Virus genome (UHGV): UHGV-0094927
Reading direction: 5' to 3' (one strand)
Source: a virus
DNA: 22,135 bases
Position 1 is the stretch's first letter; each line of letters starts with the position of its first letter. Positions 951-996 of the stretch are shown one piece after another. The position numbers and the translations under genes were made by a program. A model generated the notes under the pieces. The model did no database searches. It worked only from the letters and a program-made list of their open reading frames with translations, and was not told the DNA's origin.

Positions 951-996
951 TGGTGCCGATAATAGGAGTCGAACCTACGACCTTCGCATTACGAAT
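951..996 (-). other. Phage attachment-site core: 46-nt copy of the 3' half of a tRNA-Thr(CGU) (anticodon loop to CCA end); not a complete tRNA gene
   Basis: Minus-strand read is ATTCGTAATGCGAAGGTCGTAGGTTCGACTCCTATTATCGGCACCA: anticodon loop U-CGU-AA, variable loop, T-arm with TTCGACT loop, acceptor 3' strand, discriminator and CCA. The sequence on the 5' side (plus 997 onward) does not supply a D-arm or acceptor 5' strand. Flanked by int on the left and gtrA on the right. Confidence 0.8.

Follow-up and report, generated by a model that had tools for sequence, protein, structure and literature searches.

Phage integration at thrW

The closest described counterpart of the locus treated here is a pair of tandem prophages between proA and yaiC, which arises when phage SfI enters the attL of an SfX already resident at thrW (PMC3306764). 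Our locus lies in a stretch of 22,135 nucleotides of the virus genome UHGV-0094927 (hereafter the window), and seems to share with the SfI/SfX tandem the target thrW by proA, the gtr-carrying phages, the recombination of an incoming phage with a resident attL and an internal gtr-att-int junction. However, the resident has here decayed to an int stump and a fragment of a tail-fibre-assembly gene, and the incoming phage appears to have been a P22-like podovirus with an HK542/SfX-type Int, which was truncated later on in association with IS2.

Several other known systems resemble parts of the locus. For instance, HK542 and its relatives (HK446, mEpX2, HK75, mEp213, mEp043 and SfX) possess the core and the P' arm as in the window, but in HK542 the phage's own P arm and int adjoin the core, where the window has a chromosomal SfI-type int relic instead. 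In the chromosome of E. coli ES9, a lambdoid prophage with a complete xis-int is followed by the core, gtrABC, a tailspike gene, a degraded P22-like prophage, xis, int, thrW and proA. The surroundings of the cryptic prophage CP4-6 in E. coli K-12 also have the full thrW gene at attL and a 3' piece of the tRNA (the pseudo-tRNA ptwF) at attR, as here; CP4-6 is a different element, and the likeness is drawn from the records of HK542, mEp213 and mEpX2. Finally, the int-attP-gtrABC module of P22, SfI and SfV has gtrABC beside att, a 46-bp core derived from thrW and P22-like virion genes, all of which are found here as well, whereas the int beside the core in the window is foreign to the module's own genome.

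In the GenBank record of SfI, the corresponding stretch between int and gtrA bears the annotation of a 46-bp 'attP core'. The initial annotation of positions 951..996, as an intact attP-type core that is not a junction of prophage and chromosome, is therefore in line with a known pattern. Our comparisons lead to another reading, to which we assign a probability of roughly 0.95: positions 951..996 are the attR core of a thrW-integrated, IS2-truncated, P22-like gtr prophage that lies beside an older integrase relic of the SfI type. Such an arrangement is known and ordinary, being a documented outcome of the repeated use of thrW by temperate phages, and the junction itself holds no new biology.

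The tRNA fragment and the extent of the core

On the minus strand, positions 951..996 read ATTCGTAATGCGAAGGTCGTAGGTTCGACTCCTATTATCGGCACCA, and in an alignment with E. coli 6EVA they match the 3' part of thrW, a tRNA-Thr gene with the anticodon CGT, at 46 of 46 positions. This ptwF-like fragment covers the tRNA from the 5' part of the anticodon loop through the CCA end, and an exact match of 46 nt to thrW cannot be attributed to chance. The initial annotation had correctly recognized a copy of the 3' half of tRNA-Thr(CGU) between int and gtrA; the int-like gene ends at 936, gtrA starts at 1287, and the core lies between them. ARAGORN detects the complete tRNA-Thr(cgt) in 6EVA (L049 20951..21026) and no complete tRNA in the whole 22,135-nt window, while an Rfam tRNA match at 954..1022 scores only 15.7 bits, below the gathering threshold of 29.

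The four-way alignment of attP, attB, attL and attR described below puts the common sequence at about 64 nt, corresponding to 933..996 of the window. The additional 18 nt (933..950), which connect the stop region of the int relic to the tRNA fragment, are also common to attP, attL, attR and the empty site, and a match starting at 933/934 is observed in many E. coli chromosomes without any int at this place. Because of this sharing, the functional common core is most likely about 62-64 nt long and not 46; in the HK542 record, attP is annotated as a sequence of 62 bp.

A resident integrase relic on the left side of the core

The int-like gene to the left of the core (33..936, plus strand) is a pseudogene, a 5'-truncated and frameshifted relic of the integrase type found in SfI, SfV and phi458, with 97% nucleotide identity to the int genes of SfI and phi458. 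Compared with these two genes, one nucleotide is missing at about 570; the relic also lacks the first ~259 nt of int and shows a W-to-R change in the motif HDLRHTW. Similarity to any int begins at position 33, and the first 32 nt of the window have no integrase match. Positions 1..33 (minus strand) form the final 33 nt of a tail-fibre-assembly gene fragment that is 93 nt long, and are identical to L049 20001..20033 in 6EVA, where RefSeq reports a 'tail fiber assembly protein, incomplete'.

The sequence of positions 1..100 is present in full in three of 5426 complete E. coli genomes (6EVA, wlxctx60 and GF4-3). All three carry the 93-nt tail-fibre fragment fused to the int pseudogene, which RefSeq describes as 'frameshifted; internal stop; incomplete', and immediately after it come an intact tRNA-Thr, proA and proB; the tRNA-Thr(cgt) is an ARAGORN call in 6EVA and is annotated in GF4-3 and wlxctx60. 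None of the three possesses a P22-like prophage at the thrW/int-relic site. Over positions 1..996 the 6EVA chromosome is identical to the window at 995 of 996 positions, and the similarity collapses exactly at 996/997, beyond which 6EVA has the thrW 5' half and the window a phage P' arm. Three further loci with the prophage-free arrangement (L074, L078 and L080) have 0 mismatches over the same stretch. Since the match to 6EVA covers 1..996 and stops at 997, the broken int is a relic resident in the chromosome, and host and phage meet at the core. The tail-fibre-assembly fragment fused to the relic is likewise resident chromosomal debris, and judged from these alignments the relic is host-resident DNA that would, in functional terms, constitute the B' side of the att site. 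The fusion of tail-fibre and int sequence has no match in IMG/VR.

These results refute the notion of an intact attP, as 1..996 matches prophage-free chromosomes in which the relic abuts an intact thrW. Phage DNA had been assumed on both sides of the core; it is the left flank, and not the right one, that proves to be chromosomal, with 1..950 as the host-derived side. The int gene had rightly been called broken, as its frameshift at ~570, its 5' truncation and its W-to-R change attest. However, this had been taken as an unusual state of the phage. Because the relic belongs to an older element with another class of Int, it reveals no unusual state of the prophage's int.

The phage side of the junction

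To the right of the core, positions 997..1286 (plus strand) comprise the phage P' arm (~997..1204) and then the region upstream of gtr. The view that this stretch is phage DNA was borne out by comparison: 997..~1204 shares ~93-95% identity with the attP arm in the phage isolates HK542, HK446, mEpX2, HK75, mEp213, mEp043, ECP1 and SfX, and is not host sequence. Several of these phage records carry an attP annotation here, with the remark 'similar to thrW and ptwF'. Core and P' arm adjoin each other in 45 IMG/VR contigs, none of which is identical to the window.

We also noted several short motifs on the two sides of the core. GGCACAA and GTCACAA cluster in the P' arm (1063..1121) and occur twice in the P arm of HK542 (L072), just upstream of the core, whereas the P arm of the relic contains GTCCCA twice (886 and 897). 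These motifs may be arm-type Int sites specific for each class; GGCACAA and GTCCCA are not enriched across the window, and the local clustering is a visual impression only. In P22-like phages of Salmonella, phase variation of the gtr operons depends on Dam and OxyR. Two GATC sites (1123 and 1229) are located in the 290-nt region upstream of gtrA, where ~0.6 would be expected from the density over the whole window.

Flanks and structure of the whole element

The surroundings of the window were read from other assemblies that are 100% identical to it over overlaps of 14.4 kb and 11.2 kb. When the protein in the gtr(C) position was looked up by exact identity, it led to the ENA metagenome scaffold_495 (L053), which is identical to window 1..14352 at 14352 of 14352 positions. 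To the left of window position 1 it continues with 7.4 kb of host genes (encoding an fdeC-like invasin, an SDR protein, a LysR protein, a KGG stress protein, two DUF892 proteins and a Mn-catalase), which are 99.9% colinear with 6EVA; this colinearity stops at window position 996. A second look-up, with a 129-aa ORF, retrieved the ENA metagenome scaffold_3 (L068, 321 kb), identical to window 10976..22135 at 11160 of 11160 positions. Past the end of the window it contains IS2, a 114-aa ORF, xis, a complete int of 386 aa, an intact tRNA-Thr(cgt), proA, proB, phoE, crl and frsA. Both a complete tRNA-Thr and host genes, which the initial annotation had considered as possibly present elsewhere, are thus found beyond the window, with an intact thrW ~4 kb to its right on scaffold_3 and host genes to its left on scaffold_495.

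The whole element was pieced together from these two scaffolds, and none of the contigs compared spans all of it. It starts from frsA, crl, phoE, proB and proA, passes through thrW (attL) to int, xis, an ORF, IS2 and the late genes, and proceeds with the tailspike gene, gtrC, gtrB, gtrA and the P' arm to the attR core (window 996..951). Past this core follow the int relic, the tail-fibre fragment and host genes, the Mn-catalase gene first among them. The element spans ~25.2 kb between its two cores, and the attL core is situated ~4.05 kb beyond the right end of the window.

The IS2 copy (L068 7571..8901; 1331 bp; IS2-family transposase match with 1e-219) starts 330 nt past window position 22135. 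There is no target-site duplication at this copy, the flanks being ACAGC and ACTGG. In the intact P22-like phage Huey (PQ850609.1), 17.3 kb separate these two flanks, and hence about 17 kb with the genes for immunity, replication, nin, antitermination and lysis have been lost. Judging from its gene content, the thrW prophage is defective, yet int, xis, all virion ORFs and gtrABC are intact. Of the components predicted to act in Int/Xis-dependent excision, int and xis are intact as ORFs and the early regulatory region is deleted.

In scaffold_3, thrW (5108..5180) is located beside the complete int (5198..6358). The gene ends there in ...GGCA-TCA instead of the encoded CCA (L068 5181..5183 at attL, equal to window 951..953), which corresponds to a change of G to A at window-equivalent 953 on the plus strand, and ARAGORN calls only 73 nt. 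Since the attP of HK542 has the normal CCA, the TCA end represents either a variant peculiar to the incoming phage or a mutation that arose later.

Four att sites and two classes of integrase

We aligned the attP of HK542, the attL of scaffold_3, the junction in the window and the empty site of 6EVA. On its int side the attL agrees with the attP of HK542, and on its tRNA side with 6EVA. The window junction, in turn, agrees with 6EVA on the relic side and with the attP of HK542 on the P' side. Position 948 is T in the window and in the empty sites (host alleles), and A in attL and HK542 (phage alleles). As this marker segregates between host and phage, the exchange point is placed to the right of 948, within the tRNA-derived core. 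The pattern of the four sites is the one predicted by a recombination of attP and attB into attL and attR, with the window junction as attR.

The prophage's own Int is identical to that of HK542 (386 of 386 residues) and shares 56% amino acid identity with the Int of SfI, the type to which the relic belongs. The junction is accordingly heterotypic, with an older SfI-type element as the source of the left arm and an HK542/SfX-type attP as that of the right arm, and is no 'intact attP' even in sequence. Of the features that characterize an attP, the thrW 3' core and the homology of the P' arm are present, while a cognate int beside the core and phage DNA on both sides are lacking. Those of an attR were all found: a match to the empty allele that ends at the core, an intact target tRNA, a second core (the attL on scaffold_3) and a reciprocal exchange. 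We had also considered that scaffold_495 ends inside the new int as a repeat of the relic; this idea was dropped, since megablast shows only the 64-nt att sequence in common and the proteins are 56% identical.

The order int-core-gtrA mimics an attP, but the two arms belong to different elements with different Int classes. For annotation this means that an int-core-cargo order alone proves neither an attP nor a free phage. Integration hot spots at tRNA genes gather remnants of integrase genes, beside which the attR of a newcomer comes to look like an attP. Moreover, programs that call prophage boundaries tend to take such a relic as the int of the prophage and to misplace the boundary.

Origin of the junction and alternative explanations

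The events that produced this locus may be reconstructed as follows. An older thrW element would have left a dead SfI-type int stump just 3' of thrW, the tRNA-Thr(CGU) gene next to proA, in the host lineage. Because the relic adjoins thrW, the functional attB was probably the attL of this old element, composed of the tRNA half, the core and the old P arm, and not a clean attB. An HK542/SfX-type Int then probably catalysed the recombination of the phage attP with the resident site inside the shared core. This would have generated a new attL with the 5' half of thrW, the core and the phage's own int, ~4 kb past the right end of the window, and a new attR with gtrA, the P' arm, the core and the old int relic, which is the window junction. 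A later deletion associated with IS2 would have removed the ~17 kb of early, replication and lysis genes. The order of events, with the relic first and the prophage second, is deduced from the many prophage-free genomes with an identical relic.

Another explanation is that the junction connects two complete prophages at thrW in a true polylysogen. This arrangement is known from E. coli ES9 and has been made experimentally with SfI and SfX, but the distal 'prophage' here consists of ~0.9 kb of dead int and 93 nt of a tail-fibre-assembly gene, and the proximal prophage is itself deleted at IS2. There is no second complete element distal to the junction on scaffold_495, where host genes (for Mn catalase, ferritin-like proteins, a LysR protein and others) come directly after the stump. 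We consider a true polylysogen very improbable. Four origins had initially been offered for the window, namely a phage particle, an excised circle, a tandem polylysogen junction and an element integrated elsewhere. The tandem junction came near the truth, except that the distal partner is only a relic.

The possibility of a true attP, with int, core and gtrA of one phage genome in a particle or an excised circle, retains hardly any probability. It is suggested by the order int-core-gtrA, which is the attP order annotated in SfI, SfII, SfV and HK542, and by the phage-like appearance of both flanks. However, the 5'-truncated int is fused to a tail-fibre-assembly fragment and has 0-1 mismatches to the relic in prophage-free chromosomes, the identical scaffold runs from this relic into host genes, a different int of the element's own lies at the other end beside thrW, and the replication and lysis genes are gone from the element. 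An assembly artefact, in which relic and P' arm were falsely joined across the core, has a similarly negligible chance: the core is a repeat at which short-read assemblies break (Logan contigs start at 967 and 998), but the join of relic, core and P' arm recurs in independent assemblies (ENA scaffold_495 and RDMY01000002.1) and is exactly the product predicted for site-specific recombination. Three Logan contigs of the prophage start at window position 967 and so include exactly 30 nt of the core before the P' arm, which fits the branching of an assembly graph at the repeated core under an assumed k of 31.

With the junction taken as the attR of a prophage beside a relic, some functional consequences can be imagined. 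The IS2-truncated element has kept gtrABC and all virion genes with 100% identity across samples. The heterotypic attP-like site, in which the P arm of an SfI-type relic stands for a plain B' arm opposite an HK542-type P' arm, could change how efficiently, or in which direction, Int/Xis recombination proceeds; the gtr prophage might be locked in by it, or further thrW phages might use it as a secondary landing site, and the truncated element might be kept by selection and not be merely recent debris. We regard these speculations as improbable.

The relic locus in other assemblies

The assembly collection has 162 blocks with the 193-aa product of the relic. In all ten places listed of these 162, the relic is preceded by the same host genes, and the sequence after the core varies: four are empty sites, two have the P' arm of the window and four contain other elements. 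The empty sites among the ten continue with the 5' half of thrW and proA, and three of them match window 1..996 without a mismatch. The P' arm of the window follows the relic in scaffold_495 and in the NCBI contig RDMY01000002.1 (L073), the latter with a different cargo. The other elements include one with a P4-type integrase and one with an Ogr/Delta-type (P2-like) protein, among others.

Across the relic loci L073-L082 we count at least six different states after the thrW core, including the two cargoes that share the P' arm of the window; that at least six states follow one relic marks thrW as a busy integration site in this host lineage. Some of the other elements diverge earlier within the core, at window-equivalent positions 957, 968 and 970. 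As the points of divergence differ, different integrases seem to use different crossover segments of thrW.

Gene content of the prophage

Next to the P' arm, the window contains gtrA (flippase; 1287..1649, plus strand; Pfam GtrA_DPMS_TM, 3e-13) and gtrB (bactoprenol glucosyltransferase; 1646..2578, plus strand; Pfam Glycos_transf_2, 8e-32). They are followed in the position of the type-specific gtr(C) by a gene for a polytopic membrane protein of 596 aa (2562..4352, plus strand), recognized by its position and its hydrophobic segments, of which there are at least seven in the first 375 residues. The protein has no Pfam or NCBIfam match, its gene has a GC content of 32% compared with ~51% in the virion genes, and identical copies of the protein were read on only ~10 contigs. 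Possibly it is a transferase for O-antigen modification that has not been described before.

The remaining genes are on the minus strand. A P22-type tailspike (4495..6288) is identified by the Pfam domains Head_binding (1e-64) and Beta_helix. It is followed by P22-like ejection, tail, head and packaging genes (6453..20703), all with intact ORFs according to the ORF list and the Pfam labels on the identical contigs scaffold_495 and scaffold_3. This set comprises gp16-, gp20- and gp7-like proteins, gp10, gp4, coat, scaffold, portal and the large and small terminases, and the region is 96-97% identical to phage IME10. Small late-region ORFs (DUF2560, the 129-aa ORF and others) occupy 20737..22135, and the prophage extends past the end of the window. 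The 84-aa DUF2560 ORF gave no match in the exact-protein look-up, probably because another start codon is called elsewhere, while the small terminase protein has exact matches in 14779 blocks.
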